DNA of 34,691 nt from a virus. A program made the position numbers and the translations under genes. This document shows positions 571 through 14,100 of the stretch, piece after piece (position 1 is the stretch's first letter; every line of letters starts with the position of its first letter). The DNA is taken from positions 1 to 34,691 of the IMG/VR virus record IMGVR_UViG_3300028048_000053. The stretch is one strand, 5' to 3'. The notes beneath the pieces were generated by a model that was given only the letters and a program-made list of their open reading frames with translations, ran no database searches and was not told the origin of the DNA.

Positions 571-576
571 AGAGAG

Positions 577-795: not shown

Positions 796-1080
796 ATGAA
801 TATCCCTTATCATCTGACCATCCGCTCTAATGACCCCGACTGCCCGCAGACCATATGGTGGTTTGAGCAGGACGACTGCCACACCCTGGCCGAGGCCGAA
901 ATGGATGCCCTGGAAGAGGCCCTATATGTCCTCTGGGAGCTCGAACCTGTAGGCCGCGCTCCTGAGTGGATGCGTGAGTTGCGCAAGGTGGGCTGCACCA
1001 ACTTCCGCTACTGCCAGGAAGAGTTTGACGTGGTGCGCTGGGTGGGCGACCTGACCTACGAGGTCATGCTGAGCAGCTGA
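796..1080 (+). CDS. hypothetical protein (94 aa)
   Basis: AAAAGGAG SD then ATG 796, in frame with ORF 757..1080; terminator hairpins 1083-1146. Confidence 0.7.
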   Translation: MNIPYHLTIRSNDPDCPQTIWWFEQDDCHTLAEAEMDALEEALYVLWELEPVGRAPEWMRELRKVGCTNFRYCQEEFDVVRWVGDLTYEVMLSS

Positions 1081-1150
1081 GAGGAGGGGGGCTTCGGCCC
1101 CTCTTTTTTTGGCCCGCGCGCCACCGGGCCTGGCGCGCGGTTTTTGCATT

Positions 1151-1169
1151 ATTGTGCAGTTTGCACAAT
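1151..1169. repeat. perfect palindrome ATTGTGCAgtTTGCACAAT (operator-like) upstream of promoter; second copy at 6701-6719
   Basis: seen directly; both copies sit between a terminator and a TTGACTTTTTCC -35. Confidence 0.6.
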
Positions 1170-1201
1170 TTCAATCACAATTTTTTGTGCAATATGACAT
1201 A

Positions 1202-1230
1202 TTGACTTTTTCCCGTATCCGTGTTATACT
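1202..1230 (+). promoter_or_regulatory. class I promoter TTGACT-N17-TGtTATACT
   Basis: -35 1202-1207, -10 1225-1230. Confidence 0.65.
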
Positions 1231-1242
1231 GTAGACAGTTAA

Positions 1243-1260
1243 GGAGAGCTGATAAACTCC
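1243..1260 (+). promoter_or_regulatory. 5'-UTR hairpin family 1 (stem GGAG/CTCC, loop AGCTGATAAA)
   Basis: covaries with copy at 402-421. Confidence 0.6.
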
Positions 1261-1286
1261 GCAAACAGAGAAAGGGAGAACTTACC

Positions 1287-1490
1287 ATGTGGTATCAGAT
1301 TTGTATTTGTGGCAACGGATATGATGATTATGATGGAAGCGGTTGCGCTTTCTTTGAGAACCACGACAAAGAGACCGCATATAAGGCTTATGAGGTCGCA
1401 AAAGCCCTCTGCACCCTATATCCCGATACTTGGATTGAGTTTCGTGAGGACGGGAGGCTCATTGAGGAGTATAACACCTTTGCCGACTAA
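1287..1490 (+). CDS. hypothetical Cys-containing protein (67 aa)
   Basis: ATG 1287 after family-1 leader and GGGAGA SD; in frame with ORF 1221..1490. Confidence 0.7.
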   Translation: MWYQICICGNGYDDYDGSGCAFFENHDKETAYKAYEVAKALCTLYPDTWIEFREDGRLIEEYNTFAD

Positions 1491-1706
1491 ATCATTGACA
1501 TTTTAAAAGGAGGGGCTTCAGCCCCTCTTTTTTACTGACCCGCGCGTTGTCAGGTGCAACGCGCGGATTTCGCTTTAGCCAGGAGGAATAAGAATTTTTA
1601 TATAAAAAAATCACGTCTTTATGCGAGCTATTATATTCCTAATACTTGCTATTGGTAAAAATTTTTGTTATAATAAATATAGAAAAGCTGGAAAGTGGTG
1701 TTACTG

Positions 1707-2000
1707 ATGCGAGTGATAAAAAAGATAGATGATTTGGGCCGTGTGGCTATTCCAAAAGACATCAGAAAAGCAATGGGATTATTTAGTGGGGATGAAATCG
1801 AACTATTGTTCCAGGAGGAAGAAAAGCAGTTGATTATAAAGCCCTACGTATCAAACTATGCGAAACAGATTACAAAATTAAAAGAGGAAATTGCGGCCGC
1901 TCGGTCAGAGGCCGGTTTAACTGGTGTTGAGGATGTGCTAGACCTACTGGCGCAGGCCGAGGGAAAGCTGACTTCCATCGAATCAGATTTGCAAAAATAA
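1707..2000 (+). CDS. AbrB/SpoVT (swapped-hairpin) family transcriptional regulator-like protein (97 aa)
   Basis: N-terminus MRVIKKIDDLGRVAIPKDIRKAMGL matches the AbrB/MazE N-domain pattern; AT-rich TTGCTA-N17-TATAAT promoter upstream; paralog at 16794. Confidence 0.7.
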   Translation: MRVIKKIDDLGRVAIPKDIRKAMGLFSGDEIELLFQEEEKQLIIKPYVSNYAKQITKLKEEIAAARSEAGLTGVEDVLDLLAQAEGKLTSIESDLQK

Positions 2001-2052
2001 AAAATTTTTTGTATAATAATATTAGAAAAAATGAATAAAGGAAGTTTGTTCG

Positions 2053-2169
2053 ATGACCGTGGAATTAGTAAAAGCTCTTTTATTAATTGCTAAAGTTTGC
2101 ATGTCCTCTCCCAACTGTGAACAGTGCAAAATAAAAGACTTCTGTGGTAAGATGCCTTCTCAATGGTAA
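2053..2169 (+). CDS. possible small Cys-rich peptide (38 aa)
   Basis: AAGGAAG SD 8 nt before ATG 2053; 4 Cys; stop TAA 2167-2169; terminator 2238-2272 downstream; below ORF-track cutoff. Confidence 0.35.
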   Translation: MTVELVKALLLIAKVCMSSPNCEQCKIKDFCGKMPSQW

Positions 2170-2345
2170 GATTTGAGGGTGTTCGACACCGGCCGCGATG
2201 CGGTCGAATTTCACGGGAACAAACGTTCTGGAGTTTTTGTTTTTGAAGACCGGCCGCAGAAGCCGGTCTTTTTTTATCCCGAAACCCTTGACATTTATAT
2301 AAAAGTATGCTATACTATAGTCAAGCAACAAGGGGGCCGCAATTA

Positions 2346-2498
2346 ATGCATACTTATAGAATTTATTTCACTTTTGATTTTGAAAAAGTTACCCATAGCG
2401 TCGAGACTGGCAAGAACGCCCATGAAGCTATCGCCAAATTACAAGAGCGTTTTCCAAAACTTAAAAAAGTTTATTGTTACGAAGAAGAAAATGCTTGA
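2346..2498 (+). CDS. hypothetical protein (50 aa)
   Basis: class I promoter 2288-2316, SD AAGGGGGC, ATG 2346 in frame with ORF 2307..2498; next promoter overlaps stop. Confidence 0.6.
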   Translation: MHTYRIYFTFDFEKVTHSVETGKNAHEAIAKLQERFPKLKKVYCYEEENA

Positions 2499-2559
2499 CA
2501 ACAAGCACAAGATGTGCTATACTACAATCAGAAAGAAAAAAGAAAAGGAGATAATAAAA

Positions 2560-2733
2560 ATGATGACTGTTCGTGAAATGATGGAGTTTCTGTCCCGCTG
2601 TGATGGTGACGACTATGTTCTGCCCCGTTCCGGTTTTGACGAAGAAACTTTTGAGACTGAGCTGGCTGTTCAGGTGGTTGCCCGTGATGGCTCCGGCGTC
2701 ATAGATGGCGTCTACTGGACCGAAGAAGATTAA
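2560..2733 (+). CDS. hypothetical acidic protein (57 aa)
   Basis: AAAAGGAGA SD then ATG 2560; in frame with ORF 2374..2733. Confidence 0.65.
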   Translation: MMTVREMMEFLSRCDGDDYVLPRSGFDEETFETELAVQVVARDGSGVIDGVYWTEED

Positions 2734-2736
2734 AGA

Positions 2737-2766
2737 ATGGGGGAAGAAATTTCCCCATTTTTTTTT
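2737..2766 (+). terminator. intrinsic terminator ATGGGGGAAG..CTTCCCCAT + T9
   Basis: perfect hairpin plus T-tract. Confidence 0.7.
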
Positions 2767-2775
2767 AAAAAAAGC

Positions 2776-2804
2776 TTGACAAATAGCCCGGGGTATGCTA
2801 TAGT
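2776..2804 (+). promoter_or_regulatory. class I promoter TTGACA-N17-TGcTATAGT, GCCCGGGG in spacer
   Basis: -35 2776-2781; -10 2799-2804. Confidence 0.65.
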
Positions 2805-2838
2805 ATAATCAGAAAGCAAGAGAAAAGGAGATACGAAA

Positions 2839-3024
2839 ATGAGCGAGCTGAGAGAAAAACTGATTGACCGCATGATTCGGATTTACGGCTTTGAGAATAA
2901 AATCGTGATTGACTTCTGCCGATGCTGTGAGACTTTTCCGAATGATGAAGCACATGACAAAACCCTGCGGACGCTGGTAATGGTCCACGAAGAGTGTCCC
3001 GTAATTGAGGAGGAGGATGAGTAA
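2839..3024 (+). CDS. hypothetical Cys-containing protein (61 aa)
   Basis: ORF track; AAAAGGAGA SD; hairpin terminators 3005-3085. Confidence 0.7.
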   Translation: MSELREKLIDRMIRIYGFENKIVIDFCRCCETFPNDEAHDKTLRTLVMVHEECPVIEEEDE

Positions 3025-3212
3025 TCCTCCTCATTTTTTGCATAATTATGCGGCCGCGCGCCACCGGCCCTAGCGCGCGGTTTTTGCATAAATATTCACT
3101 TTTCAGCAATTTTTTGTATAAATATTCATTGTAACACTTTGTAACCATTTTCCCAAAAAACTGTAACTATTTTGTTATTGACTTCTGGCTTACTTTGTGC
3201 TATACTTTAATC

Positions 3213-3315
3213 AAGGTTGAGGGGCGAAAACAAGATAACAACAGGGACTTGTAACTGCCCGATAAAGAAAAGATAGAAAAGGACTTTTCCAGCTATCCCC
3301 GCCCCTCAAAAAACT
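3213..3315 (+). ncRNA. candidate sRNA: promoter (TTGACT 3178-3183, TATACT 3201-3206) to structured ~100-nt transcript with no ORF
   Basis: long-range pairing GAGGGGCG(3218)...CGCCCCTC(3298); no start codon or SD. Confidence 0.35.
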
Positions 3316-3379
3316 TGAAAAAAATGAAAAAAAGGCTTGACAAACTCAAAAAGGTATGCTATAATAAGAGCGTAATCAA

Positions 3380-3397
3380 GGAGAGCTGATAAACTCC
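3380..3397 (+). promoter_or_regulatory. 5'-UTR hairpin family 1 (GGAG/CTCC, loop AGCTGATAAA)
   Basis: identical to 1243-1260 element. Confidence 0.6.
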
Positions 3398-3421
3398 ACA
3401 AACAGAGAAAAGGAGAAAATT

Positions 3422-3631
3422 ATGAAGATGCGTGCTACTACTAAGGCGGCTATTCAGGCCCTTATCGACAACAAGGCTGAGGTCTACCGCTGGACTGATG
3501 CCGAGGGATGGAGCGTCATCAACACCCCGGCATATGGCGTGTCCATGAGCACTCTGCGCAAGTACGCCACCTATGACAAGCGGCCCTATGGTGAGGGCGA
3601 GATGCTGACCGTCACGGGGTGGAGGGAGTAA
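3422..3631 (+). CDS. hypothetical protein (69 aa), paralog of 4972-5181
   Basis: ORF track; about 70 percent identity to the 4972 product (MKMRATTKAAIQALIDNK.. versus MKMKITTKKAIQTLIDNK..). Confidence 0.75.
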   Translation: MKMRATTKAAIQALIDNKAEVYRWTDAEGWSVINTPAYGVSMSTLRKYATYDKRPYGEGEMLTVTGWRE

Positions 3632-3886
3632 TCTTTCCACCATATATAGAGGCCATTCCCACTAAGCGAGAAGCCGTGGCCAGGAGGAAATAACGAAAAG
3701 GGATAAATACTCCAAAATGTCAACTTCTCATAGGAGGGGGGCTCTTGCCCCTCTCCTTTTCTACTCACCCTCGCGCTTTCTGACGCCAGCGCGAGGAGTT
3801 TAGATTTATATATAGATTACACAATTTTTACCCTATTTTTTTGTGCATATTGTCTACTTGATTTTTTCCTGCATCTATGCTATACT

Positions 3887-3995
3887 TTAATCATCAAGGG
3901 GCGGTGACGCTGACCGGCGGGAAGCAGATACCAAGGTAGCTACAAAGGAAAACAGAAACACGGCTTGTGAAGACACACCGACAAAATTTTTTGGA
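3887..3995 (+). ncRNA. candidate sRNA cassette (promoter TTGATT 3858-3863 / TATACT 3881-3886, no ORF)
   Basis: promoter consensus then ~100 nt lacking an ORF, ending in a hairpin plus T6. Confidence 0.3.
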
Positions 3996-4047
3996 GAAAT
4001 TCAAAAAACCCCTTGACAAACCCATGAAAGTGTGCTATAATAAAGGC

Positions 4048-4373
4048 ACAAGGTCAAGAGGGGAACCGAACAGGACGAAGTAAGGCACCGCGGATGACCC
4101 GAAAAGCGACGAGAGGTTGATAAAAGCTTGATACCCTCTTGACTGTCCACTTAAATAGCACTTCAACTATCAGGCAGACGGAGGTGTCGGAAAGATGTTT
4201 ACGAGCGGATTTCTGTAGCAACTGAATAAGCTGTAGAAAAACGTAAATGTAGGAACGGAGGCAGCTTCTAATGTATTGGTCTGGATTTGTGTAGCTACAA
4301 TTAAATGATGTGTTTTCGATAGGCCGGGACGATGCTTGCGCCCCGGCCTATCGCCCGGGCAAAAAACTTTTTT
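4048..4373 (+). ncRNA. candidate ~300-nt non-coding transcript (promoter TTGACA 4013-4018 / TATAAT 4036-4041) ending in a 12-bp perfect hairpin terminator (4310-4347) + GCCCGGGC + T-tract
   Basis: no ORF with SD on + strand; the minus-strand ORF 4170..4694 spans promoters and terminators and is judged spurious. Confidence 0.35.
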
Positions 4374-4445
4374 CAAAATACTATTGACAAGCTCGGAATA
4401 ATCTGCTATACTGTATTCAGAAAGAAACGAAAGGGGAATTTCAAA

Positions 4446-4637
4446 ATGTACACACTGAGTATTTACACCTATGAAATCAGCGACTATAACCGCCTTGACC
4501 TGTATATCAGCGGTTGCGAAGCGGCCTATGCCGCTTTCCGTAAGGCTTGCGAGCTTGCCGACCTCACGGGCGCTTTCGTGAGCCTGTGGGATAACGACAC
4601 GGGCGAGGTCGTTGCGGACAATGGGGAGGATGAGTAA
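4446..4637 (+). CDS. hypothetical protein (63 aa)
   Basis: class I promoter 4384-4415; ATG 4446 in frame with ORF 4332..4637; terminators follow. Confidence 0.7.
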   Translation: MYTLSIYTYEISDYNRLDLYISGCEAAYAAFRKACELADLTGAFVSLWDNDTGEVVADNGEDE

Positions 4638-4680
4638 TCCTCCCCATTGTCTACTGGCCCGAGCGCCCACGGCCCAGGCG

Positions 4681-4733
4681 CTCGGTTTTTGCATAAATAT
4701 TCAGTTTTGGGTGAATTTTTGCATAAATATTCA
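4681..4733. repeat. GCATAAATATTCA direct repeats flanking a 12-bp inverted repeat (TTTTGGGTGAAT / ATTCACCCAAAA)
   Basis: GCATAAATATTCA-like copies also at ~3070, 3107, 5520, 5554, 5583. Confidence 0.6.
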
Positions 4734-4801
4734 CCCAAAAATTTTTCAACTTTTTTCACAAAACCTATTGACATTTCAGAAAAACCTGCTATAATAGGTA
4801 G

Positions 4802-4880
4802 TGTCAAGGGGAGAAGAAAACAACCTCTCACAGGCGCGTAACCTGTTGTAAGTAAAATAAAATCTCTCATAAAAATGTAA
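4802..4880 (+). ncRNA. candidate short transcript from promoter TTGACA 4768-4773 / TATAAT 4790-4795 with no ORF
   Basis: hairpin ACAGG-cgcgtaa-CCTGT; no SD or ATG. Confidence 0.25.
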
Positions 4881-4927
4881 AAAACCCCTTGACAATTCCC
4901 CGTAAGTGTGTTATACTTAAACCATCA

Positions 4928-4947
4928 AAGGGAGCTGATAAACCCTT
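4928..4947 (+). promoter_or_regulatory. 5'-UTR hairpin family 1 (AAGGG/CCCTT, loop AGCTGATAAA)
   Basis: identical to 402-421 element. Confidence 0.6.
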
Positions 4948-4971
4948 GAAAACAGAGAAAAGGAGAACGCT

Positions 4972-5181
4972 ATGAAAATGAAGATTACGACTAAAAAGGC
5001 TATCCAGACCCTCATTGACAACAAGACCCCCATTTTCCGCTGGACTGATGCGGACGGGTGGAGCGTCATTGATACCGCCGCATATGGCGTGTCCATGAAA
5101 ACTCTGCGCAAATATGCCACCTATACCAAAACCCCCTGCGAGGGCGGCGAGATGCTGACCGTCATCGGGTGGAAAGAGTAA
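4972..5181 (+). CDS. hypothetical protein (69 aa), paralog of 3422-3631
   Basis: ORF track; family-1 leader; AAAAGGAGA SD. Confidence 0.75.
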   Translation: MKMKITTKKAIQTLIDNKTPIFRWTDADGWSVIDTAAYGVSMKTLRKYATYTKTPCEGGEMLTVIGWKE

Positions 5182-5215
5182 TCCGCCCTCACATATGAAA
5201 GGAGATATATTCGAT

Positions 5216-5419
5216 ATGGAAAACAGCAGAAAGAATACCTACAAGGGAGCTTCCATTTGCACCATCCTCACTATCCTCTTCGTCATCCTCAAACTGACCG
5301 GCGTGATTGCCTGGCCCTGGTTCTGGGTGCTGTTCCCGCTGATTCTTGACCTCGGCCTCGCCCTCATCATTCTGATCGTCATCATGGTCGTCAAGATTAT
5401 CGCCTTGAAACGCAACTGA
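5216..5419 (+). CDS. small membrane protein, 2 predicted TM helices (67 aa)
   Basis: GAAAGGAGA SD; ATG 5216 in frame with ORF 5195..5419; hydrophobic core ICTILTILFVILKLTGVIAWPWFWVLFPLILDLGLALIILIVIMVV. Confidence 0.65.
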   Translation: MENSRKNTYKGASICTILTILFVILKLTGVIAWPWFWVLFPLILDLGLALIILIVIMVVKIIALKRN

Positions 5420-5463
5420 CTACAATTTGAGAGGGGCTTTTGCCCCTCTCCTTTTCTTGCTTC

Positions 5464-6050
5464 AGCACTTTAACGATTTAAAGCGCTGAAGTTCAGCCGG
5501 GCGCCCGCGGTCCAAGCGCCCGGCTTTTGCATAAATATTCAGTTTTCAATGAATTTTTGCATAAATATACATACATTTTCTGCATAAATATTTTCACAAA
5601 ACCTCTTGACAGATTGCACGGGCTATGCTATAATACAATCAGAAAGCAAGAGAAAAGGAGGTAAAAAACATGAAATACTTTATTCACACCTATGACTGGA
5701 ATTTTGATACGATGGAACGGAAGCATGAAGTTAAAGAAATTAACCATCAAGAGCTTGCGGAACTTGTGCAATACCAAGAGGAAACCGCCTTTGACTACAA
5801 GTGGAATGAATTGAAACTTATCAAAATGACTGATACGGAAATGCACTTCGTGCTTAACAAGAAAACCAAATTAAATTATTAATCTTAAAAAAAGGTAAAA
5901 GAGGGGGATTGCTCCCCCTCTCTTTTTAAGGCAAACACTTTAACGATTTAAAGTGCTGAAGTTCAACCGGGCGCTTTCCCACGCAGCGCCCGGTTTTTCA
6001 ATTTAAATGGTTAAAGCGTAATTTTTGCCGCACTTTAACCATTTAAAGTG
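5464..6050. repeat. three copies of palindrome GCACTTTAA-N4-TTAAAGTGC (5464-5489, 5937-5955, 6031-6050)
   Basis: seen directly; each follows a gene terminator. Confidence 0.6.
5670..5882 (+). CDS. hypothetical protein (70 aa)
   Basis: class I promoter 5608-5640; AAAAGGAGG SD; ORF track. Confidence 0.7.
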   Translation: MKYFIHTYDWNFDTMERKHEVKEINHQELAELVQYQEETAFDYKWNELKLIKMTDTEMHFVLNKKTKLNY

Positions 6051-6138
6051 CTAAATCGCTAAATCCCAAAACATAAGTTCTGCTTATACCTGGATTGAAG
6101 TATTAGTACAGCGAATAGATAAAAATTTCAAAAAAGGC

Positions 6139-6167
6139 TTGACAAATTGCCCGGGCTATGGTATACT
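6139..6167 (+). promoter_or_regulatory. class I promoter TTGACA-N17-TGgTATACT, GCCCGGGC in spacer
   Basis: -35 6139-6144; -10 6162-6167. Confidence 0.7.
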
Positions 6168-6198
6168 CTAATCAAGATAAGACAAGGGGGAAACACCA

Positions 6199-6645
6199 AT
6201 GAAGAAAATTACTTGCAATCCTGTTACCACCTTCAAGAACAAGGGCGACAATCGGGAATGTGCTTTCGGCAACTATATCGGCATGAGCAAGGCATATCAC
6301 GATGATTTGAATTGCTTTGACGCTTCTGACTTCGTAAAGGGCGATATGCGGTACTCTGTCAAAGGTGACGGTTTCACTCTTATGAGCGGATATCTTGCCC
6401 CTGGGGCTGATTCTTTCGATGCTATATGGGCCGTGTTCCGTACTAAGGTTCATAGCAACTGTTTCGTCTATGTAGACGCTGATTTCAACGCCTATATGAT
6501 GAACATTGATGAGTTTGAGAGCTTCGTTTATATGTTCGGCTATATGGCAAAGGAAAGCGACAAGAACGGCGGCGGATGGAAAATCCGTTGCAAGCACGAA
6601 AGCAAAAAAATGGTCAGGTGGCTGTCCGAAAGGGTGGCCGCCTGA
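6199..6645 (+). CDS. hypothetical protein (148 aa)
   Basis: ORF track; SD AAGGGGGA; tandem terminators 6635-6700. Confidence 0.7.
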   Translation: MKKITCNPVTTFKNKGDNRECAFGNYIGMSKAYHDDLNCFDASDFVKGDMRYSVKGDGFTLMSGYLAPGADSFDAIWAVFRTKVHSNCFVYVDADFNAYMMNIDEFESFVYMFGYMAKESDKNGGGWKIRCKHESKKMVRWLSERVAA

Positions 6646-6700
6646 CCCCCCTCTTTTTTTGGCCCTCGCGCCACCGGGCCTGGCGCGAGGATTTCGCATT

Positions 6701-6719
6701 ATTGTGCAGGTTGCACAAT
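6701..6719. repeat. palindrome ATTGTGCAggTTGCACAAT (second copy of 1151-1169 operator-like site)
   Basis: seen directly. Confidence 0.6.
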
Positions 6720-6816
6720 TTTTGCCCCGATTTTTTGTGTATATTGCAGGATTGACTTTTTCCCAGAAGTGTGCTATACTTTAAACAATCCAAGAGGAAA
6801 GGAAAGTCGAAAATTG

Positions 6817-7266
6817 ATGCAGACTATTTACTTTGACATGGACGGCACGCTTGCCGACCTCTATAGTGTCTTTAACTGGCTGGGCAAACTGCGCTCTGAG
6901 GATGCAACCCCCTATATGGACGCCAAGCCCTTAATCCGCATGGCTCTGCTTGCCCGCCTTTTGAATGGCCTGCAAAAGCAGGGGTATCAGATTGGGATTA
7001 TCTCCTGGCTCAGCAAAGAATCTTCACGGGCATATGAGGTAGAGGTCTCTATTGCCAAGGAAGAGTGGCTGAAAAAGCATCTGCCGAGCGTGACTTGGGA
7101 TAAGATGCATTTCATTCCATATGGAGTTCCCAAGGCCGAGGCCGCAAACATTCAGCCGTTCGATATTCTGTTCGATGATGAACAAGCCAATATCGAAGCA
7201 TGGGAGCGCGCAGGTGGATGGGGCTTTTCCCCCGATAAAATCTTTGAAACTCTGCGGGGAATGTGA
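6817..7266 (+). CDS. HAD-superfamily hydrolase, 5'(3')-deoxyribonucleotidase-like (149 aa)
   Basis: N-terminal motif FDMDGTLADL matches HAD motif I as in the NT5C family; ATG 6817 in frame with ORF 6769..7266. Confidence 0.6.
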   Translation: MQTIYFDMDGTLADLYSVFNWLGKLRSEDATPYMDAKPLIRMALLARLLNGLQKQGYQIGIISWLSKESSRAYEVEVSIAKEEWLKKHLPSVTWDKMHFIPYGVPKAEAANIQPFDILFDDEQANIEAWERAGGWGFSPDKIFETLRGM

Positions 7267-7375
7267 GGGGGTATATCCCCCTTCACCTCTCGCCCGGGCA
7301 AAAAATTTTTTCAAAATACTATTGACTTTTCAAATAAGATGTGCTATACTACCAATAGAAAGAGAGGTTAGGAAA

Positions 7376-7522
7376 ATGAAAAAGAAAGAAGTTAATGCTT
7401 ATAAGAAAATGACCCCCGAACAGCTTGCGGCGTTCCTTGCGCTTCGCTGCCGTGGCGGCATAGTCCCCGCAAAAAAGGGCAAGGGTAGCTATAAGCGGAG
7501 TGAGTTTAAGAAAGGGGAATAA
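7376..7522 (+). CDS. small basic protein (48 aa)
   Basis: class I promoter 7324-7355; ATG 7376 in frame with ORF 7121..7522. Confidence 0.5.
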   Translation: MKKKEVNAYKKMTPEQLAAFLALRCRGGIVPAKKGKGSYKRSEFKKGE

Positions 7523-7525
7523 AAT

Positions 7526-7720
7526 ATGCAAATATTTGGTATAGACTGGTGTGAAAATTTTTGGGATGGAAATACCTCCCATGTTTGGGGTCGTATTTAT
7601 AAAAGATACAGCCCCTATAAAAAGAAATCCTATTCATATTTCTGGATTCGCCACAAAAAGAAAAACAAGACCTTTTATCGTATTACCAATAATTTTTTCA
7701 TTGAAAGAGGTAAAAGATGA
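7526..7720 (+). CDS. hypothetical Lys/Tyr-rich protein (64 aa)
   Basis: AAGGGGAA SD then ATG 7526; ORF track. Confidence 0.5.
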   Translation: MQIFGIDWCENFWDGNTSHVWGRIYKRYSPYKKKSYSYFWIRHKKKNKTFYRITNNFFIERGKR

Positions 7721-7850
7721 AAAATAGAGTTGCCCTTTTGGGTGACCCTATTTTTCGCCCGGGCGAATTTTTTTTATAAAACCTATTGACAAACTTGGCG
7801 CAATGTGCTATAATCACTATAGAAAGTTAAGAAAAAAGGAGATAATAAAA

Positions 7851-8045
7851 ATGAAAATCAAAGTTACCTATTACATCCCTGTGGAAAGAGAAATTGAAAT
7901 GACCCCCGAAGAATATTGTCTGTTCCATGCGGACGGTAAACTGCACGGTGAAAAGGTAATTCCCGATAATGCCATCTATGAAGATGTGACCCTGCCGGAA
8001 GAAGCCATAGAAGAGCTGACTGAATATTTTTATAAAAATTTTTAA
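7851..8045 (+). CDS. hypothetical acidic protein (64 aa)
   Basis: class I promoter; AAAAGGAGA SD; in frame with ORF 7803..8045; 10-bp hairpin terminator 8072-8110. Confidence 0.7.
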   Translation: MKIKVTYYIPVEREIEMTPEEYCLFHADGKLHGEKVIPDNAIYEDVTLPEEAIEELTEYFYKNF

Positions 8046-8272
8046 CATTATAGGAATCCCGGGCGCTCACCCTCGCGTGCCCGGGCGCCACGCGAGGGAT
8101 TCGGTTTTTTATGCAGTTTTGGCAAATTTTTTGCATAAAAATTCACCCCATAAAATTTTGATTTTTTTCCTAAAAAAGGCTTGACATTTTCATCCCCATG
8201 TGCTATAATGTGTATGCAATCGAGGGAGGGACGCCAACCCTGGTTAGCATTTTTGAAAGGATTTGATGCACT

Positions 8273-8935
8273 ATGGACAAGCGCAAGACCTATTACCTGA
8301 CCATCGACACGGAAACCGCAAACAATATGGACGACCCCATGATGTATGACATAGGGGGAGCTATCCATGACAAGCGGGGCATGGTCGAGGAAACTTTTTC
8401 CTTTGTCATTTATGACATTTTCTGCCGTGACCGCAGGCTTTTCAACACCGCCTATTATGCGGACAAGCGCCCCATCTATGAAGCGGGTATTGCGGACGGC
8501 TCTCGCAAGCTGGTAACTATCTTTACCGCAAAAAAGTATATTGCGGCCCTTAGCCGCAAGTATGATGTAAAGGCGATTATCGCCCACAATGCCCGCTTTG
8601 ATAACGGAAGTACCAACAAAACCCTGCGCTATATTACCAAGAGTAAGATGCGCTTTTTTCTGCCGTATGGTATCCCTGTTTGGGATACTCTGAAAATGGC
8701 TCGTGATACTATCTGTAAGCAACCCACTTATAAGCGGTGGTGTGCCGACCACGGTTTTCTTCAGAAGAACGGCACGCCGAGGGCTACCGCTGAAATTCTG
8801 TATCGTTACATTACTTGCAACGCAGAGTTTGAAGAAAGTCACACGGGGCTTGAAGATGTGCTAATCGAAAAGGAAATTTTTGCCAAGTGTATGGCACAGC
8901 ACAAGCCCATGCGGAAACTGTTGTGGGATAAATGA
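8273..8935 (+). CDS. DEDDh-family 3'-5' exonuclease (DnaQ / RNase T-like), 220 aa
   Basis: YLTIDTETAN (Exo I) and AHNARFD (Exo III, His type) motifs read in the translation; terminator 8938-8975. Confidence 0.7.
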   Translation: MDKRKTYYLTIDTETANNMDDPMMYDIGGAIHDKRGMVEETFSFVIYDIFCRDRRLFNTAYYADKRPIYEAGIADGSRKLVTIFTAKKYIAALSRKYDVKAIIAHNARFDNGSTNKTLRYITKSKMRFFLPYGIPVWDTLKMARDTICKQPTYKRWCADHGFLQKNGTPRATAEILYRYITCNAEFEESHTGLEDVLIEKEIFAKCMAQHKPMRKLLWDK

Positions 8936-9091
8936 TAAAATGGGGGGATTCAATCCCCCATTTTATTTTTCATAGCGAGTTAGCAATGGCTAACTTTTTC
9001 GCCCGGGCGATTAGCAAATTGCACAAAAAATAAACGATGTTTTTGTGCAAAATCCCATCTTGCAAAATGGGGGTAGGTCGTGCTATACTAT

Positions 9092-9170
9092 AATTGTTCC
9101 AAGGGGGAAGGCAAACAGCGAAAGCCTTTAGCGAGGTAGGACACTTCCCCCAACGGAACGAAAAAAATTT
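9092..9170 (+). ncRNA. candidate sRNA (CCAAGGGGGAAGGCAAACAG...ACACTTCCCCC family) from promoter TTGCAA 9045-9050 / TATACT 9080-9085
   Basis: no ORF; 8-bp stem GGGGGAAG/CTTCCCCC; two related copies at 13496-13600. Confidence 0.35.
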
Positions 9171-9295
9171 AAAAAAGGTCTTGACAAGCCGCTGAAAGTG
9201 TGCTATAATAAGACCGTAAGTGAGAGAGAGAAAATCTCCACTCCACCGCCTTGCCGCTACTAAAAGGCGTAAGAATCTGGTAGCACCACAAAGGG

Positions 9296-9311
9296 TAGTG
9301 ACCTACCACTA
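9296..9311 (+). promoter_or_regulatory. 5'-UTR hairpin family 2 (stem TAGTG/CACTA, loop ACCTAC) abutting AAAGGAG
   Basis: covarying copies at 13683-13698, 15560-15575, 17185-17200, 17614-17629. Confidence 0.55.
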
Positions 9312-9326
9312 AAGGAGTTGTGTACT

Positions 9327-9695
9327 ATGACTACTTCTAAGATGACCTACAAGACCGCTATCGAGTACGCTATCCGCAACCTGCCTGCCGATGCCCCTGT
9401 CGAGGTGACGGACAAGCTGACCGCCCTTATCACTTCCCTGGAGAAGAAGAGCGGCGCCGAGCGCAAGCCCACCGCCACGCAGGTGGCGAACGAGGGCTAT
9501 AAGGCCGCCATCATGGAGTACCTTTCCGATGTGGGCGAGCCCAAGACCGTGGGCGACATTCTGAAAGAGGTTCCTGCGGTGGCTGGCTTCTCTACCCCCA
9601 AGGTGTCCGCTCTGATGAAACAGCTCACCGAGGGCGGCGCTGTCGAGCGCTTGACTGACAAGCGCCGCACCTACTTCAAGGCGATTGTCGCCTAA
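9327..9695 (+). CDS. winged-helix-like DNA-binding protein (122 aa), paralog of 13714-14100
   Basis: C-terminal ~75 aa nearly identical to the paralog, including at nucleotide level; ORF track. Confidence 0.7.
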   Translation: MTTSKMTYKTAIEYAIRNLPADAPVEVTDKLTALITSLEKKSGAERKPTATQVANEGYKAAIMEYLSDVGEPKTVGDILKEVPAVAGFSTPKVSALMKQLTEGGAVERLTDKRRTYFKAIVA

Positions 9696-9853
9696 CCCCT
9701 GCGGGGGGTGGAGAAATCCACCCCCATTTTTTCCAAGGCGAGTTAGCGGCGGCTAACCGCCCGGGCGATTTAAATGTTGCCTGCGCAACATGAAAAATTC
9801 TTGACTTTTGGTTTCAATGTGGTATAATAAGACCGTGGAAAGGAGTTGATTTT

Positions 9854-10216
9854 TTGGATGAAAAACGCATAGCCCTCTTGATGAAACAGCTTGACATTTC
9901 CAGGGATGAAGCAATCGAAGTCTTGAAAGAGGACAGCGAAATTGACAAGGGCGCAGAACTGTTTGAACTAACCCCCGAACAGAAACAGGTCGAAAAGAAA
10001 ATGCGCCAAGCTGACCGCAAAGTGACTGCCTATAGCTGGAAACCAAGAGAGCGCAAACCCAACGAAACCAAAAGAAAGCTAATTCAAGATTTGGCCTTAA
10101 CCCTGCATCATAATCCTATGGTAGATAGCTGGGAAATCACCAATCAAGAACGGCAAATTGATTTTGAGTGCAACGGCACCAAATATCGTATCATTCTGAG
10201 CGCCCCCCGCAAATAG
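9854..10216 (+). CDS. hypothetical protein (120 aa), paralog of 12613-13014; TTG start; terminates with TAG
   Basis: AGGAG 8 nt before TTG 9854 (the only ATG nearby hits a stop after 4 codons); ends at the same relative point as the paralog, so TAG 10214-10216 acts as a true stop here. Confidence 0.6.
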   Translation: MDEKRIALLMKQLDISRDEAIEVLKEDSEIDKGAELFELTPEQKQVEKKMRQADRKVTAYSWKPRERKPNETKRKLIQDLALTLHHNPMVDSWEITNQERQIDFECNGTKYRIILSAPRK

Positions 10217-10410
10217 GGGGCGCTTTTCATTTTGAATAATTATTCACTTCCTTTGAGCCGCTGGCGCACGGGCGCGTGCCAGCGGTGTTCGGCGCAATCA
10301 GCACTTTCCACAAAAAACGTTGCGAAAATTTGTGCAATTTGCCATCTTGCTTTTTTCCTGAAATGTGCTATACTATAATCACAAAAGGAAAAGAAAAGGA
10401 GATGCTTCAA

Positions 10411-10686
10411 ATGATGTTCAATGATGCTGTGTATGTGGGTCGCGAGTGCCCGTTCTGCGGTGAGTACCACGAGGTACTTGTCAGCGAGGCTGACTTTGCC
10501 GCGTGGCAGGGTGGGGAGTTGGTGCAGGACGCCTTCCCCTATCTCTCCGCTGACGAGAGGGAAATCCTTGTCAGCGGCATCTGTCCCAAGTGTTGGGCAG
10601 AGACCTTTGGCGAGGAGGGAGACGAGGAGGAGGAGTGCTTTGAGCCTGGTCGCCCCTGCGTCAACATGTTTGAGCTGAACCCCTAA
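10411..10686 (+). CDS. Zn-ribbon protein (CPFCG...CPKCW), 91 aa
   Basis: ATG 10411 is 9 nt after AAGGAG; in frame with ORF 10276..10686. Confidence 0.65.
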   Translation: MMFNDAVYVGRECPFCGEYHEVLVSEADFAAWQGGELVQDAFPYLSADEREILVSGICPKCWAETFGEEGDEEEECFEPGRPCVNMFELNP

Positions 10687-10796
10687 TTATGGGGTTTAGT
10701 CGCCCGGGCGCAATTATGTAAACCAAAAAAATCTGAAAAAATTTCAAAAAAGGTATTGACATTTACGCCCCCCTGTGCTATACTATAATTGTTCCA

Positions 10797-11335
10797 AGGG
10801 AGTGGCCATTGACCAAGGAACTGTGGAGGGAAGCCAACATCGGCCCTGCGAGTACCAAATAATGATTGTTGGTGACGGTTAGACGCTTAAGTTGCTATGC
10901 GAACAAACACTTTCTCAAATAGCAGAAAGGGGTTAGAGACAGCAGAGCCACCCTTTTTTAGGCAGTTTTTTCCTGTGGCGTTCAAGGAAAAAATATTCTG
11001 ACTTTTTTAGTGTTCATCTGGTCATTCTTCACCAAACACTGGATTTTTCAAGAGGAAAGAATCTAAAAATAATTGGAAGAAACTGAATACTTTTAGGCAG
11101 TTTTCAATTCAGTCGCTGTGATAGAAAGAAACTCCCCCTTGCGGGGGCGGTGAGGTTAGTAAGGTAAGAGCTAACGGCTTATTGGGTCGAGCCGCTGAAT
11201 ATCAACATCCGCCCCCCAATAAGGGATATTTAAATACCTCTCTACTTTTTGTAGTGCTCCTTTTCTTTCTCTCTTTCTTTCTGTGGCGTGGGTAGGATTT
11301 TCCTACCCTTGCGCCCGGGCGAAAAATTTTTTGCC
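10797..11335 (+). ncRNA. ~540-nt apparently non-coding transcribed region between a consensus promoter (TTGACA 10761-10766) and terminator 11288-11335
   Basis: no ORF with SD; several long-range stems (CTTATTGGG...CCCAATAAG, CCCCC-ttg-CGGGGG); ORF 11283..11471 spans the next promoter and is judged spurious. Confidence 0.3.
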
Positions 11336-11412
11336 CCAATCAAATTTTCCCCTTGACATTTATAAAAAAATATGTTATTATAATAGTACAAAAAGAAAGG
11401 AGATAATAAACA

Positions 11413-11577
11413 ATGACAAACGCTATTTTGATTATCCTCTGCGTGTATTTTGCGGCTTCGGCCCTTGTTGATGCCGCAAAAGCAGACCGCAATCCCTGCT
11501 GGTCTACCTGCCTTGATGTGGTCTTTGACCTGGCTCTGCTGGTGGGCGTGTTTCATTTGATGGAGGTATTTTGCTGA
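11413..11577 (+). CDS. small membrane protein (54 aa)
   Basis: AAAGGAGA SD + ATG 11413; stop TGA overlaps next ATG (TGATG). Confidence 0.55.
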   Translation: MTNAILIILCVYFAASALVDAAKADRNPCWSTCLDVVFDLALLVGVFHLMEVFC

Positions 11578-12056
11578 TGAATACCGCAATTTTGCTTTTT
11601 GTCATTTGCACTCTTGCAAATGTTGTCATTGCGACTATCAAAAGTGTAATGACCATCAAGGGCGGCAAGGTTGCCGCTTCCATCTGGAACGCTCTCAGCT
11701 ATGGCCTTTACTCCTACATTGTGATAATGACCGCAAACGCCGACATTTCCACGCTCGGCAAGGTTTTAATCACCGTAGGCTGTAACTTAATCGGCGTGTT
11801 TTTCGTTAAGTTAGTAGAGGAAAAGATGCGAAAAGATCGCCTGTGGAAAATTGAAATGACAATTTATTCCACCAACGCCGACAAGATGCACCAAGAACTG
11901 GAAAATGCTGGTATCCCCAATAACTATGTAATTGCAGGCCGCCATGCTATTTTTAATTGTTTCTGCGATACTCAAAGTGACAGCGCAAACGCCCTTGCTA
12001 TTGGCAAGACCTACAACGCAAAAACTTTTGCATCAGAAACAAAACTTAATCCCTAA
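11577..12056 (+). CDS. membrane protein with soluble C-terminal domain (159 aa)
   Basis: ORF track 11571..12056; ATG 11577 translationally coupled; 3 hydrophobic segments. Confidence 0.65.
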   Translation: MNTAILLFVICTLANVVIATIKSVMTIKGGKVAASIWNALSYGLYSYIVIMTANADISTLGKVLITVGCNLIGVFFVKLVEEKMRKDRLWKIEMTIYSTNADKMHQELENAGIPNNYVIAGRHAIFNCFCDTQSDSANALAIGKTYNAKTFASETKLNP

Positions 12057-12116
12057 CGGCATTCCCCGCCTCGGCGGGGATGTTGCCCGGGCGCAAAAAA
12101 ATTTTTAAAAAAAGTC

Positions 12117-12145
12117 TTGACAAACTGCGCAAAGTACACTATACT
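12117..12145 (+). promoter_or_regulatory. class I promoter TTGACA-N17-TATACT
   Basis: -35 12117-12122; -10 12140-12145. Confidence 0.65.
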
Positions 12146-12179
12146 GTCTACAGAAACCAAGAGAAAAGGAGATACCAAA

Positions 12180-12494
12180 ATGAAAAAGGGTTTTGTTTCC
12201 ACGATGCGCAAGGGATTCCACATGACCTTCCCCAACGGCCTGACCGTTTCCGTCCAGTGGGGTGCTGGCAACTACTGCGACAACCACTTCCCCAAGGATA
12301 TGGATTTCACCTTCTCCAAGGACGCCGAAAGCGATACTGCCGAGGTTGCTGTCATCGATCCGCAGGGTGAGTTCCTTGACCCTCAGCGGTTTTTTGACTA
12401 TGAAATCAGATCTGACGGCATGGTGGCTGGCTGGCTCGACCCCTCGCAGGTTGTTGAACTGTTGGCGAATGCGCGCGACTGGCCTAACATCTAA
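12180..12494 (+). CDS. hypothetical protein (104 aa)
   Basis: AAAAGGAGA SD; ATG 12180 in frame with ORF 12117..12494. Confidence 0.7.
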   Translation: MKKGFVSTMRKGFHMTFPNGLTVSVQWGAGNYCDNHFPKDMDFTFSKDAESDTAEVAVIDPQGEFLDPQRFFDYEIRSDGMVAGWLDPSQVVELLANARDWPNI

Positions 12495-12612
12495 GGCCAG
12501 TCTTTCGCCCGGGCACGCATAAACATTCACTGAAACTGAATAAAAATTCTTCTTGACATTTGTTTATAGGTGTGCTATACTATGTATAGTCCAGGAGAAA
12601 GGAGAGGTAGTA

Positions 12613-13014
12613 ATGGCAAGACAGTCCGCTAAAGAGCGTGAAGCGCAGATTGAGCGCACGATGAAAGCCCTTGAAGTCACAAGGGAAGAAGCCCTTGAAA
12701 TCCTCGCAGAAGATGACGAGATTGACAAGGGCGCAGATCTTCACCCCTTGACCCCCGAACAGGAAAAAGTTGTTAAAAAGATGCGGCAGGCTGACCGCAA
12801 GCCCACGGTCTACAACTGGCAGAAAAAGCGTGAGCGTAAGCCCAACGAACTCAAAAGAGAAATCATCGACGATTTGTTCGGTTTCTTTTGCGAGAACTGG
12901 CCAGAAGTGGCAAAGAATGGAAACATCATCAACCCCGAAAGACAGATTGACTTTGAGCTTGGAGGGGAGAGCTTTTCCATCACTCTGACCCAGCACCGCA
13001 AACCCAAGGCGTAA
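12613..13014 (+). CDS. hypothetical protein (133 aa), paralog of 9854-10216
   Basis: shared block EIDKGA.L..LTPEQ..V.KKMRQADRK......W...RERKPNE.KR.II and a C-terminal ERQIDFE motif. Confidence 0.7.
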   Translation: MARQSAKEREAQIERTMKALEVTREEALEILAEDDEIDKGADLHPLTPEQEKVVKKMRQADRKPTVYNWQKKRERKPNELKREIIDDLFGFFCENWPEVAKNGNIINPERQIDFELGGESFSITLTQHRKPKA

Positions 13015-13134
13015 GGCGTAAGGGGGGAACATTTGTTCCCCTATCTGCGCCCGGGCGGCCGCAAACTGCACAATTTTAATACTCTGTTTTTGTGCAAAAC
13101 ACCATCTTGCTTTTTTAAGATAGTGTGCTATAAT

Positions 13135-13215
13135 AATAATTGTCAAGGGGCTGTAAACCGCGGGGCATCCAAATAAGTCCTGTACTGCGTGGTAAGAAAT
13201 TTCAAAAAGTTTTTT
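13135..13215 (+). ncRNA. candidate sRNA or leader between promoter (TTGCTT 13100-13105 / TATAAT 13123-13128) and tRNA-Lys
   Basis: no ORF; AT hairpin TTTCAAAAA-g-TTTTTGAAA at the 3' end. Confidence 0.3.
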
Positions 13216-13239
13216 TTTGAAAATCCCCTTGACAAACTT

Positions 13240-13314
13240 GCGGCCATGGTGTAATTGGTAACACAGTAGACTTTTAATCTATCATTCGGGGTTCAAGTCC
13301 CCGTGGTCGCACCA
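13240..13314 (+). tRNA. tRNA-Lys (anticodon UUU), CCA encoded
   Basis: manual cloverleaf: acceptor GCGGCCA/TGGTCGC, D stem GTGT/ACAC, anticodon stem GTAGA/TCTAT with loop CTTTTAA, T stem CGGGG/CCCCG with loop TTCAAGT. Confidence 0.8.
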
Positions 13315-13495
13315 ATTCCTTTCCTTTTTATTATCTCTCTCTTTCTTACAAAGAACCCTGCTAAAGCGATTTAGTGGGGTTTCTTTGTAGAATCGCCCGG
13401 GCGACTGGCAAAATGCACAAAACAATTTCTAAAATTCTATCTCATTTTGTGCATTTTGCCTATTGTAATCTGTGCGCCCTTGTGCTATACTATAA

Positions 13496-13600
13496 TCGTT
13501 CCAAGGGGGAAGGCAAACAGCGTTAGGACACTTCTTCAAAGGGGGAAGGCAAACAGTGACAGGGCACTTCCCCCCTCGGACGCCGAAAAAAATTCCAAAA
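13496..13600 (+). ncRNA. two tandem copies of the CCAAGGGGGAAGGCAAACAG sRNA-like motif from promoter TTGCCT 13455-13460 / TATACT 13478-13483
   Basis: sequence family shared with 9092-9170. Confidence 0.3.
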
Positions 13601-13713
13601 AACTCTTGACAAGCCGCTTTGAGTGTGCTATAATAATGGTGTCAATGAGGGAAGCCCCTCTTGAACATAAAAAAAATATGGGTAGCGACCTACCGCTAAA
13701 GGAGTTGTGTACT

Positions 13714-14100
13714 ATGACTAACACCAAGATGACCTACAGCAAGGCTATTGCCGCCTGTATCGACCTGCTGACCACTGGCGAGACTTCTGAGAATCCCACC
13801 GAAATCGTGGAGAAGCTGACCGCCCTCTCCGAGAGCCTTGCGAAGAAGTCTGGGGCTGAGCGCAAGCCGACTGCGACCCAGGTTGCCAACGAGGGCTATA
13901 AGGCGGAGATTCTCGCCTATCTGCGTGATGTGGCCGAGCCTAAGACTGTGGGCGACATTCTCAAGGAAGTCCCCGCCGTGGCTGGTTTCTCCACTCCCAA
14001 GGTATCTGCCCTCATGAAGCAGTTGGTTGACGAGGGTAACGGCCCCGTCGAGCGTCTGACCGACAAGCGGCGCACCTACTTCCGCATCAAGGCGGAGTAA
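13714..14100 (+). CDS. winged-helix-like DNA-binding protein (128 aa), paralog of 9327-9695
   Basis: family-2 leader; ATG 13714 in frame with ORF 13447..14100. Confidence 0.7.
   Translation: MTNTKMTYSKAIAACIDLLTTGETSENPTEIVEKLTALSESLAKKSGAERKPTATQVANEGYKAEILAYLRDVAEPKTVGDILKEVPAVAGFSTPKVSALMKQLVDEGNGPVERLTDKRRTYFRIKAE

Follow-up and report, generated by a model that had tools for sequence, protein, structure and literature searches.

Paired TTGTGCA half-sites at early promoters of a gut phage as candidate operators for a host PucR/CdaR-type regulator

PucR-type regulators are mostly activators, and they bind inverted repeats of 17–24 bp; the repeat of PutR spans 17 bp, and GabR occupies two inverted repeats directly upstream of the −35 box as an octamer (PMC7652997). 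No sites have been reported for CdaR/SdaR of Escherichia coli or for SrmR (PMC13599513, 2026). Here, we describe inverted repeats of the type TTGTGCA/TGCACAA that precede seven early promoters of a large gut phage. The DNA analysed, hereafter the window, comprises 34,691 nucleotides (IMG/VR record IMGVR_UViG_3300028048_000053, positions 1 to 34,691) and is the first 34.7 kb of the 171,985-bp metagenomic contig ENA ERZ27252073:k141_3465; together with 9 kb more, it is the part of the 172-kb phage sequence that was read.

Host-regulator sites on phage early promoters are already known from phi29, in the form of Spo0A boxes. This phage reportedly carries host Spo0A boxes together with parS sites. 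Spo0A represses the phi29 early promoters, and the 0A box, TGTCGAA (TGNCGAA), is non-palindromic. For the sites described here, the reading that we favour, with a probability of about 0.55, is that they are bound by a host regulator of the PucR/CdaR family, with HTH_30 as its C-terminal domain, and not by a phage protein.

A half-site module at fixed positions in early promoters

The early region of the phage extends over bases 1–19,000 and contains about 42 sigma-A-type promoters of the pattern TTGACA-17-TGnTATAMT, seven of which, in the first 13.5 kb, carry the motif. Downstream of each early promoter comes either a very small gene or an RNA that is not translated, followed by a terminator, and at 19.6 kb the promoter type switches to TATAATATATATAGAAA. 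An initial annotation of the window had described a family of TTGTGCA/TGCACAA inverted repeats upstream of promoters with weakened −35 boxes, and the counts confirm that the family is real. TTGTGCA occurs 17 times on the two strands of the window against 4.9 expected, a number reached by none of the shuffled sequences, and the pair TGCACAA-N16-TTGTGCA, with up to two mismatches allowed, gave 6 matches against 0.17 expected. Within the first 13.5 kb, a −10 hexamer follows 13 of the 17 copies at a distance of 36–100 nt; this promoter-upstream zone makes up about 8% of the window, so that about 1.3 copies would be expected there (binomial estimate roughly 1e-11). The remaining four copies (5764, 16545, 26031 and 28779) are in coding DNA. 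With 13/17 copies in the promoter-upstream zone, the motif does not occur at equal frequency in coding DNA, a comparison that the annotation itself had proposed.

The link with weakened −35 boxes is also borne out: a −35 box other than TTGACA is present at 7/7 motif promoters against 6/35 of the other early promoters (Fisher p = 6.4e-5). These data support the view that the motif represents a set of positioned binding sites for a protein, placed where activators act and linked to promoters whose −35 boxes are sub-optimal. The seven sites are listed below in the order of their coordinates.

Site A, 1151..1230, plus strand: full palindrome ATTGTGCAgttTGCACAAT at 1151–1169, dyad centre −77; proximal TTGTGCA at 1185–1191 (−52 to −46); −35 TTGACT at 1202–1207; extended −10 TGtTATACT, hexamer 1225–1230; drives a 67-aa gene at 1287–1490.
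Site C, 3818..3886, plus strand: distal TACACAA at 3818–3824, dyad centre −77; proximal TTGTGCA at 3841–3847; −35 TTGATT at 3858–3863; −10 TATACT at 3881–3886; drives an untranslated RNA that enters a consensus promoter at about 4013–4041.
Site B, 6701..6780, plus strand: full palindrome ATTGTGCAggtTGCACAAT at 6701–6719, centre −77; proximal TTGTGTA at 6735–6741; −35 TTGACT at 6752–6757; −10 TATACT at 6775–6780; drives an NT5C/HAD-like gene at 6817–7266.
Site D, 9010..9089, plus strand: degenerate left arm ttaGCA with TGCACAA at 9020–9026, dyad centre −78; proximal TTGTGCA at 9043–9049; −35 cccatcTTGCAA at 9060–9065 with an 18-bp spacer; −10 TATACT at 9084–9089; leader RNA into the consensus promoter 9181/9204 of the winged-helix gene 9327–9695.
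Site E, 10297..10374, plus strand: distal TCCACAA at 10307–10313 (one mismatch), centre −76; proximal TTGTGCA at 10330–10336; −35 gccatcTTGCTT at 10347–10352 with a 16-bp spacer; −10 TATACT at 10369–10374; drives a zinc-ribbon-like gene at 10402–10686.
Site F, 13057..13134, plus strand: distal TGCACAA at 13067–13073, centre −76; proximal TTGTGCA at 13090–13096; −35 accatcTTGCTT at 13107–13112; −10 TATAAT at 13129–13134; drives a leader RNA and probably tRNA-Lys at 13240–13314.
Site G, 13404..13491, plus strand: distal TGCACAA at 13414–13420, centre −86 (one helical turn farther); proximal TTGTGCA at 13447–13453; −35 TTGTAA at 13463–13468; −10 TATACT at 13486–13491; leader RNA into the consensus promoter 13606/13629 of the winged-helix gene 13714–14100.

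The geometry of the sites is nearly invariant. The proximal half-site, TTGTGCA (TTGTGTA in B) in the context TTTGTGCA, starts 39–41 nt from the −10 hexamer in 7/7 sites (about −52 to −46), and the centre of the distal dyad falls at −76 to −78 in 6/7 sites and at −86 in G. Distal and proximal half-sites are separated, from start to start, by exactly 23 bp in six sites and by 33 bp in G (13414/13447), not by the loose N10–20 spacing originally described. In A and B, the distal dyad is a complete palindrome, ATTGTGCA-N3-TGCACAAT, in which two 8-bp arms flank 3 bp; the other five sites have a degenerate left arm, and D–G retain GCA-N3-T(G/C)C. A proximal dyad is implied as well; its centre falls at −43 to −45, and its weak right arm extends into the −35 region. 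The two dyads are thus 33 bp apart centre to centre (43 bp in G), which corresponds to whole helical turns. The −35 hexamers of A, C, B, D, E, F and G are TTGACT, TTGATT, TTGACT, TTGCAA, TTGCTT, TTGCTT and TTGTAA, and the −10 boxes are of the extended type. The 16-bp spacers between half-sites have no sequence in common across the sites, and conservation is therefore confined to the half-sites and the distance between them and does not extend to entire duplicated cassettes. Consensus early promoters have a AAAAAATTTTTT-type stretch between the GCCCGGGC palindrome and the −35 box; in the motif promoters, the place of this A6T6-type UP-like element is taken by the module.

Several details of the initial annotation are corrected by this anatomy. 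Both perfect palindromes that it had reported are present, the one at 6701 being ATTGTGCAggTTGCACAAT, with a central base unlike that at 1151 (gt). Sites A and B each have a third half-site (1185 TTGTGCA, 6735 TTGTGTA), 23 bp downstream of the right arm of the palindrome and 33 bp from its left arm, and they therefore share the distal-plus-proximal layout of the other sites. All six sites listed earlier are real, and a seventh, TACACAA-N16-TTGTGCA at 3818–3847 before promoter 3858/3881, had been overlooked. The −35 sequence ccatcTTGC, assigned to four promoters, is present in three of them; the fourth, at 13463, is TTGTAA.

Three strain variants of the phage were found. One of them, L145, keeps site B and has in site D a mirror-image change in both half-sites, from TGCACAA to TGTACAA and from TTGTGCA to TTGTACA; these are two of about eight differences in 400 bp. 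The same variant has an additional site of the same layout before another untranslated RNA.

The module in other phages and in host genomes

A near-identity search with 20 kb of the window gave no match among deposited phages, and a 90-nt search with the site A module returned only an unannotated 16-kb faecal phage and noise. Relatives at the protein level are rumen and gut IMG/VR contigs of 24–176 kb. The exact palindrome ATTGTGCAnnTTGCACAAT was found in 16 IMG/VR contigs, including a 15.5-kb phi29-like family with DNA_pol_B_2 (L009, L010, L013, L015, L017 and L018), a further phi29-like phage with DNA_pol_B_2 and the connector GP10 (L014), a terminase/portal phage with four tandem palindromes (L022) and a 42-kb phage (L012). 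Apart from the relative L016, none of the palindrome contigs shares a protein with the window at E<1e-3.

The full module, that is, TGCACAA, 23 bp, TTGTGCA and 39–40 nt to the −10 box, is present in L014 and L017/L018. The same module, its proximal half-site again 39–41 nt before the −10 box, precedes at least 15 promoters in the relatives L016, L041, L045 and L145 and in unrelated phages, with the 23-bp spacing in 14 of the other-phage cases; many promoters of the relatives have a single proximal half-site only, again at this distance. The fixed geometry at 7/7 sites of the window and at these promoters agrees with the earlier suggestion of an operator and activator site set for one DNA-binding protein. 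Since the module is common to phages without a common regulator, the host is indicated as the source of the binder.

The early intergenic regions of relatives also contain boxes of known host factors. The Rex consensus is reportedly TTGTGAA-N4-TTCACAA, with TTGTTAA-N4-TTAACAA in Clostridia. The first form occurs 10 times in L007 and the second 9–10 times in L004 and L006, a density of 9–10 Rex-type boxes per 15–20 kb. LexA-type CGAAC-N4-GTTCG is present in 6 copies in L004 and 2 in L041, and the parS site TGTTTCACGTGAAACA is found in L007, L008 and L041 and in phi29-like phages (L010, L013, L017 and L018). Because relatives carry such arrays of perfect Rex, LexA and parS boxes, this phage group seems to embed host-factor sites habitually.

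A scan for the 19-mer palindrome in a collection with one genome per species gave at least 120 loci; the following counts refer to the matches listed. Most are from gut and rumen Oscillospiraceae, Lachnospiraceae, Ruminococcus and other Clostridia. About one-fifth are long hairpins that hold the sequence by chance, and the rest cluster before orthologous genes; downstream genes are an EF-G paralog (7–12 loci), a MalK/MsmK-type sugar ABC ATPase (about 8) and SBP_bac_8 (6). The palindrome centre lies exactly at −76 relative to a TGnTAyAAT −10 box in 6/7 MsmK loci, where the −35 box is weak (TTCCAA, TTCCAT, TTCACA or TTTCTT), and at −76 in 2/3 loci of one group of sugar-binding protein (SBP) genes. 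The repeat of PrcR/PutR, reportedly TTGTGG-N-CCACAA with its centre at −76, agrees with the window in how the half-site begins and in position. The MsmK promoters have, in addition, ATTTTGGnGA at −51 to −45 and 'catcTT' at −35, comparable to TTTGTGCA and ccatcTTGC of the phage. In layout, the phage module therefore copies this type of host promoter, and given the same paired sites at the same distance as in host sugar-transport promoters, the phage most likely borrows a host regulator.

A protein with HTH_30, the C-terminal domain of PucR, is encoded at 12 of the 120 loci listed, in most cases with GGDEF_2 and/or the PucR N-terminal domain, and in most of the 12 loci the palindrome is within about 70 bp of the start or end of this gene. 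By a rough expectation, an HTH_30 gene would be met in fewer than 1 in 100 random 8-kb stretches. The 12 loci come from five bacterial classes, with Clostridia, Bacilli (Paenibacillus, Sporosarcina), Coriobacteriaceae, Acidaminococcaceae, Treponema and Marinobacter represented. At two Firmicutes loci (L069 and L104), the regulator gene flanks the palindrome-bearing msmK-type gene. The PucR-family gene cdaR of E. coli is preceded, at a distance of about 50 bp, by TTGCACAAT, and the garP-garD control region contains TTGTGCA...TGCACA; the upstream region of gudP has no TTGTGCA, and the support from CdaR therefore comes from only 2/3 E. coli regions. A literature search with the raw motif strings gave only irrelevant matches.

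Features of PucR-type operators thus recur in the phage: an inverted repeat of 17–24 bp in two copies, complete at 1151 and 6701 (7-3-7, or 19 bp including flanks) and reduced to the partial dyad GCA-N3-TGCACAA in the five remaining sites; a computed position upstream of and abutting the −35 box of a sigma-A promoter; and a sequence that stands beside genes of the regulator family (12 of the 120 loci listed and E. coli cdaR).

Proposed identity and role of the binding protein

From these observations, we infer the identity of the binder and the activating sign of its effect. The elements would be operators for one dimeric or higher-order DNA-binding protein, and the module, present in 7 of about 42 early promoters of this phage of gut or rumen Clostridia, would consist of a distal 17–19-bp dyad (TTGTGCA-N3-TGCACAA), a proximal half-site, a sub-optimal −35 box and an extended −10 box. 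A host oligomer of the PucR/CdaR type, bound to the dyad at −77 and to the half-site at −49, three helical turns apart (four in G), would help RNA polymerase at promoters with a sub-optimal −35 box, and a subset of early transcripts would be tied to the metabolic state of the host. The genes regulated in this way would include those for the 67-aa protein (A), the NT5C-like nucleotidase (B) and the zinc-ribbon-like protein (E), together with the leader RNA and tRNA-Lys (F) and untranslated leaders into second consensus promoters (C, D and G), of which D and G precede the winged-helix genes. More tentatively, unrelated lineages of gut-Firmicutes phages (the 172-kb group, phi29-like podophages and at least two more) may have independently taken over the full, msmK-like host promoter module, with an activator dyad at −76, a half-site at −50 and a weak −35 box, and the sites may give the first operator consensus of the large and poorly characterised PucR/CdaR family and a conserved gut-Clostridia regulon. 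With such an adoption, a metabolic regulator of the host would control a portion of early expression, including regulatory leader RNAs, a tRNA and the winged-helix genes of the phage.

A number of points weigh against the assignment to a host PucR/CdaR-type activator. The binder is named by guilt by association, and a PucR-type gene adjoins only 12 of the 120 palindrome loci listed, so the EF-G, MsmK and SBP sites could belong to another host factor of the same specificity. The PucR-type regulators studied to date are local and effector-dependent, and the reliance of several phage lineages on one of them would be puzzling. Some module promoters of relatives have the consensus TTGACA, and the link with a weak −35 box is therefore a tendency and not a rule. 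The sites could also act negatively, because extended −10 promoters may be active unaided. Finally, an AbrB-like gene is found no more than about 0.5 kb from TTGTGCA in the window (1707, near site A), in L016, where it is directly upstream of a double palindrome, and perhaps in L045, and a phage-encoded binder of another fold is possible elsewhere in the 172-kb genome, about a quarter of which is visible.

The last two points bear on the alternative that a phage regulator switches this subset of promoters, whether an AbrB/SpoVT-like protein (1707–2000 or 16794–17075), a winged-helix protein (9327–9695 or 13714–14100) or another protein encoded in the 172 kb, which we regard as unlikely. Its candidates do resemble regulators: the AbrB-like open reading frames (ORFs) match MazE/AbrB PF04014 with E=1e-9 to 1e-11, and winged-helix protein 1 (9327) has weak matches to Penicillinase_R and to the PHROG 'transcriptional regulator'. 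Motif promoters upstream of both winged-helix genes could reflect autoregulation. As the initial annotation stated, these genes are indeed downstream of motif promoters, through tandem promoters; this marks them as targets and is not evidence for the binder. Its proposal of a winged-helix or AbrB paralog as the binder does not agree with the distribution of the motif, since homologues are found in relatives without it and the module is found in phages that share no protein. Loci of 15–20 kb in relatives that keep winged-helix genes (L007 and L008) or two AbrB genes (L005) have 0–1 copies of TTGTGCA, and no analogous dyads were seen upstream of the winged-helix homologues in L007 and L008, on which grounds the winged-helix binder was rejected. 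The AbrB-like binder was rejected as well: a search of the palindrome-bearing phages with an AbrB profile (AbrB, SpoVT, Abh and phage copies) found AbrB only in L016, the identical module stands in phi29-like and other unrelated phages with neither an AbrB-like ORF nor a protein in common with the window, and none of the 120 host loci listed has an AbrB-like gene. The co-occurrence of regulator and operator expected of a phage immunity-type pair was not found across related phages, and chromosomal host promoters have the palindrome at the same position (−76). A phage-borne PucR-type protein was not seen either: a local profile search found no HTH_30 ORF in the window or in 26 phage loci, and a signature scan of all IMG/VR for phage PucR gave 22 unrelated loci, none with the palindrome.

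Binding by the host factor with a negative or titrating role, as a repressor, a roadblock or a decoy that alters the host regulon, appears rather improbable. Promoters with a TTGACT-type −35 and an extended −10 box should fire unaided, in L017/L018 a second copy overlaps a TTGACT hexamer that is a possible −35 box, and at three host sugar-binding-protein loci the palindrome apparently lies in the 5′ leader, 39–44 bp before the start codon, a repressor-like place. The arrays in relatives (9–10 Rex-type and 6–15 LexA-type boxes), often away from promoters, resemble titration, but the 16–17 half-sites of the window are few for this purpose. The strict distance to the −10 box and the place upstream of the core promoter fit activation, as does the association with weak −35 boxes, which is a prediction of activator dependence, and PucR-type regulators are mostly activators (PMC7652997).

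An effect of nucleic-acid structure, through RNA hairpins in read-through transcripts (processing or attenuation) or DNA cruciforms, is very improbable. Stems of 11–14 bp are possible at sites D and G (z=−3.1 and −6.4), and the mirror-image double change in L145 keeps the pairing. However, C, E and F fold weakly or not at all (z=−1.8, +0.15 and −1.5), A and B are marginal, the loops vary from 3 to 22 nt, and the position is fixed to the downstream promoter and not to the upstream terminator. The single proximal half-sites of relatives, at the same distance from the −10 box, cannot pair; a protein site explains them and a hairpin does not. Host copies, moreover, adjoin regulator genes. An intrinsic terminator or structured RNA was rejected for z-scores of −6.4 to +0.15 and for the absence of a U-run after the stems; Rfam found only tRNAs across the window. 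Equally hard to credit, and perhaps slightly more so, is the view that the repeats are a by-product of duplicated intergenic cassettes and paralogous genes without a function of their own. The terminator-plus-palindrome cassettes of A and B are indeed homologous, the genes behind D and G are paralogs, and other intergenic cassettes are clearly duplicated, such as GCCCGGGC with 26 copies; yet in the paralogous cassettes the half-sites and their spacing are kept and the 16-bp spacers have fully diverged, and the same module occurs in unrelated phages and in host promoters.

Known operators were compared with the motif and rejected. The Rex operator has the arrangement 7-4-7 (18 bp) and the element here 7-3-7 (17 bp), the half-site differs, and the window contains no exact Rex box of either form. 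Compared with the Spo0A 0A box, the 7-mer here, TGTGCAA, has GC in place of the central CG, and its copies face each other head to head. The dyad of the BlaI/MecI/CopY-type winged-helix operator, TACA-N2-4-TGTA, considered because ORF 9327 weakly matches this fold, has the opposite order to TGT...ACA and another spacing. The DnaA box, the sigma-54 −24/−12 elements, CRP/FNR, TnrA/GlnR, PadR and AraR sites and the T4 MotA box, compared by eye, have the wrong spacing or bases.

Surrounding features and relation to known systems

The GCCCGGGC palindrome, usually reading cgCCCGGGcg, occurs in 26 copies against 0.37 expected at 371–18957 of the window (e.g., 9001, 13049, 13395 and 14147), mostly between terminator and promoter in early intergenic regions; a few copies are in a promoter spacer or in the 18.8–19.0-kb non-coding stretch. 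Relatives have another palindrome in the same place, TTAGACG-N5-CGTCTAA about 30 times in L001 and TTAGACC-N5-GGTCTAA in L002. A second repeat family upstream of promoters, TTTGCATAAATATTCA, gave 13 matches with up to 3 mismatches against 1.1 expected; it forms direct repeats 30 bp apart (3083–3128, 4688–4733, 5526–5594 and 8130–8145), which come after terminators homologous to those preceding sites A and B. Perfect TGAATAATTATTCA is present at 10233 and 18143. We take this family to resemble the ArgR/AhrC ARG box.

Early untranslated RNAs of 80–500 nt were noted at 3890–4340, 9090–9180, 10790–11300 and 13497–13605, none with a match to an Rfam family. Several begin with 'aattgttccaaggg...', have long hairpins and read into a second consensus promoter, and leader RNAs of this kind give the tandem promoters before both winged-helix genes.

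The late-type motif TATAATATATATAGAAA stands before most gene blocks past 19.6 kb (19671–34689), usually with TTTTATAAAAAA ahead of it; it is also found at 1669, ahead of the AbrB-like gene 1707, within a low-GC patch of the early region. The non-coding stretch 18800–19700 between the early and late regions contains a unit of about 130 nt duplicated at 19260–19400 and 19480–19620 ('...ttaggcaatttcatttaa...catttaaaatcggcattttaagcc'), which could be an origin-like region. A low-GC island on the opposite strand, also between these regions (20200–22300), has ORFs interrupted by stops and dense 'tacaaaaa' repeats at about 21240–21500. In-frame TAG codons occur in the ORFs 28416–29192 and 31119–32012 and on the minus strand at about 21520–21890, where the frames otherwise continue; because public ENA gene calls read through these TAGs (258-aa and 297-aa products), a reassignment of TAG in late genes is suggested. 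Seven tRNAs were called in the window, and none is a suppressor. Two tRNA-like halves, gcctccttagctcagctggtcagagcacgcggctg ... caaccgcggtgtcgtaggttcgaatcctacaggaggcgcca, lie about 470 nt apart at 33176–33725 with a PDDEXK_5 nuclease-like ORF (33250–33669) between them and may represent a tRNA gene interrupted by an intron or endonuclease.

If a host PucR/CdaR-type regulator does act at the early promoters, a large lytic-type gut phage would, at the onset of infection, use a transcription factor of its host to sense the metabolic state of the cell, and unrelated phages of the same hosts would behave likewise, giving a fresh case of the phi29/Spo0A principle with another regulator family. An operator consensus, TTGTGCA-N3-TGCACAA, with a preferred position at −76 would be predicted for a family whose sites are mostly unknown, and the predicted targets in gut Clostridia would be the msmK-type ATPase, sugar-binding proteins and the EF-G paralog. 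For annotation, the early promoters of the phage would fall into two classes, one constitutive, with consensus boxes and an UP-like element, and one dependent on a factor. We consider the question of moderate to good interest, as it connects several phage lineages with a conserved host regulon and with a family of regulators that is poorly understood.

Among described systems, the sites are closest to the operators of PucR-type activators, namely PutR/PrcR at putBCP and AdeR at ald in Bacillus subtilis and GabR at gabTDP in Corynebacterium glutamicum. Inverted repeats of 17–24 bp are common to them (17 bp in PutR), GabR needs two for strong binding, and its sites are directly upstream of the −35 box of a sigma-A promoter, where the oligomeric protein activates (PMC7652997). 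The exact palindrome of the window, in turn, abuts a PucR/GGDEF_2/HTH_30 gene in 12 of the 120 loci listed. Unlike those operators, the candidate sites described here have the half-site TTGTGCA and serve seven promoters of a phage genome in which no PucR-type gene was seen.

The Rex operator resembles the motif in its TTGT...ACAA ends and A/T-rich centre, and the relatives L007, L004 and L006 hold 9–10 perfect Rex-type boxes. Rex targets are fermentation and NAD(H)-linked genes, whereas the genes behind the host palindromes, for an MsmK-type ATPase, a sugar-binding protein and an EF-G paralog, are not known to be among them. In layout, a strong distal dyad with a weaker site abutting the −35 box, a poor −35 box and phasing by whole helical turns (33 bp; 43 bp in G) recall the recognition and activation sites of LysR-type regulators or OR1/OR2 of lambda cI at PRM; this analogy concerns the layout only, as the sequences are unrelated and no LysR- or cI-type protein is implicated. 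As in phi29, host-protein sites at early promoters would couple phage development to host physiology, and the phi29-like gut phages in our comparison have both perfect parS sites and the TTGTGCA module; unlike in the phi29/Spo0A case, the sequence and the protein family are different, and the geometry suggests activation where Spo0A represses.

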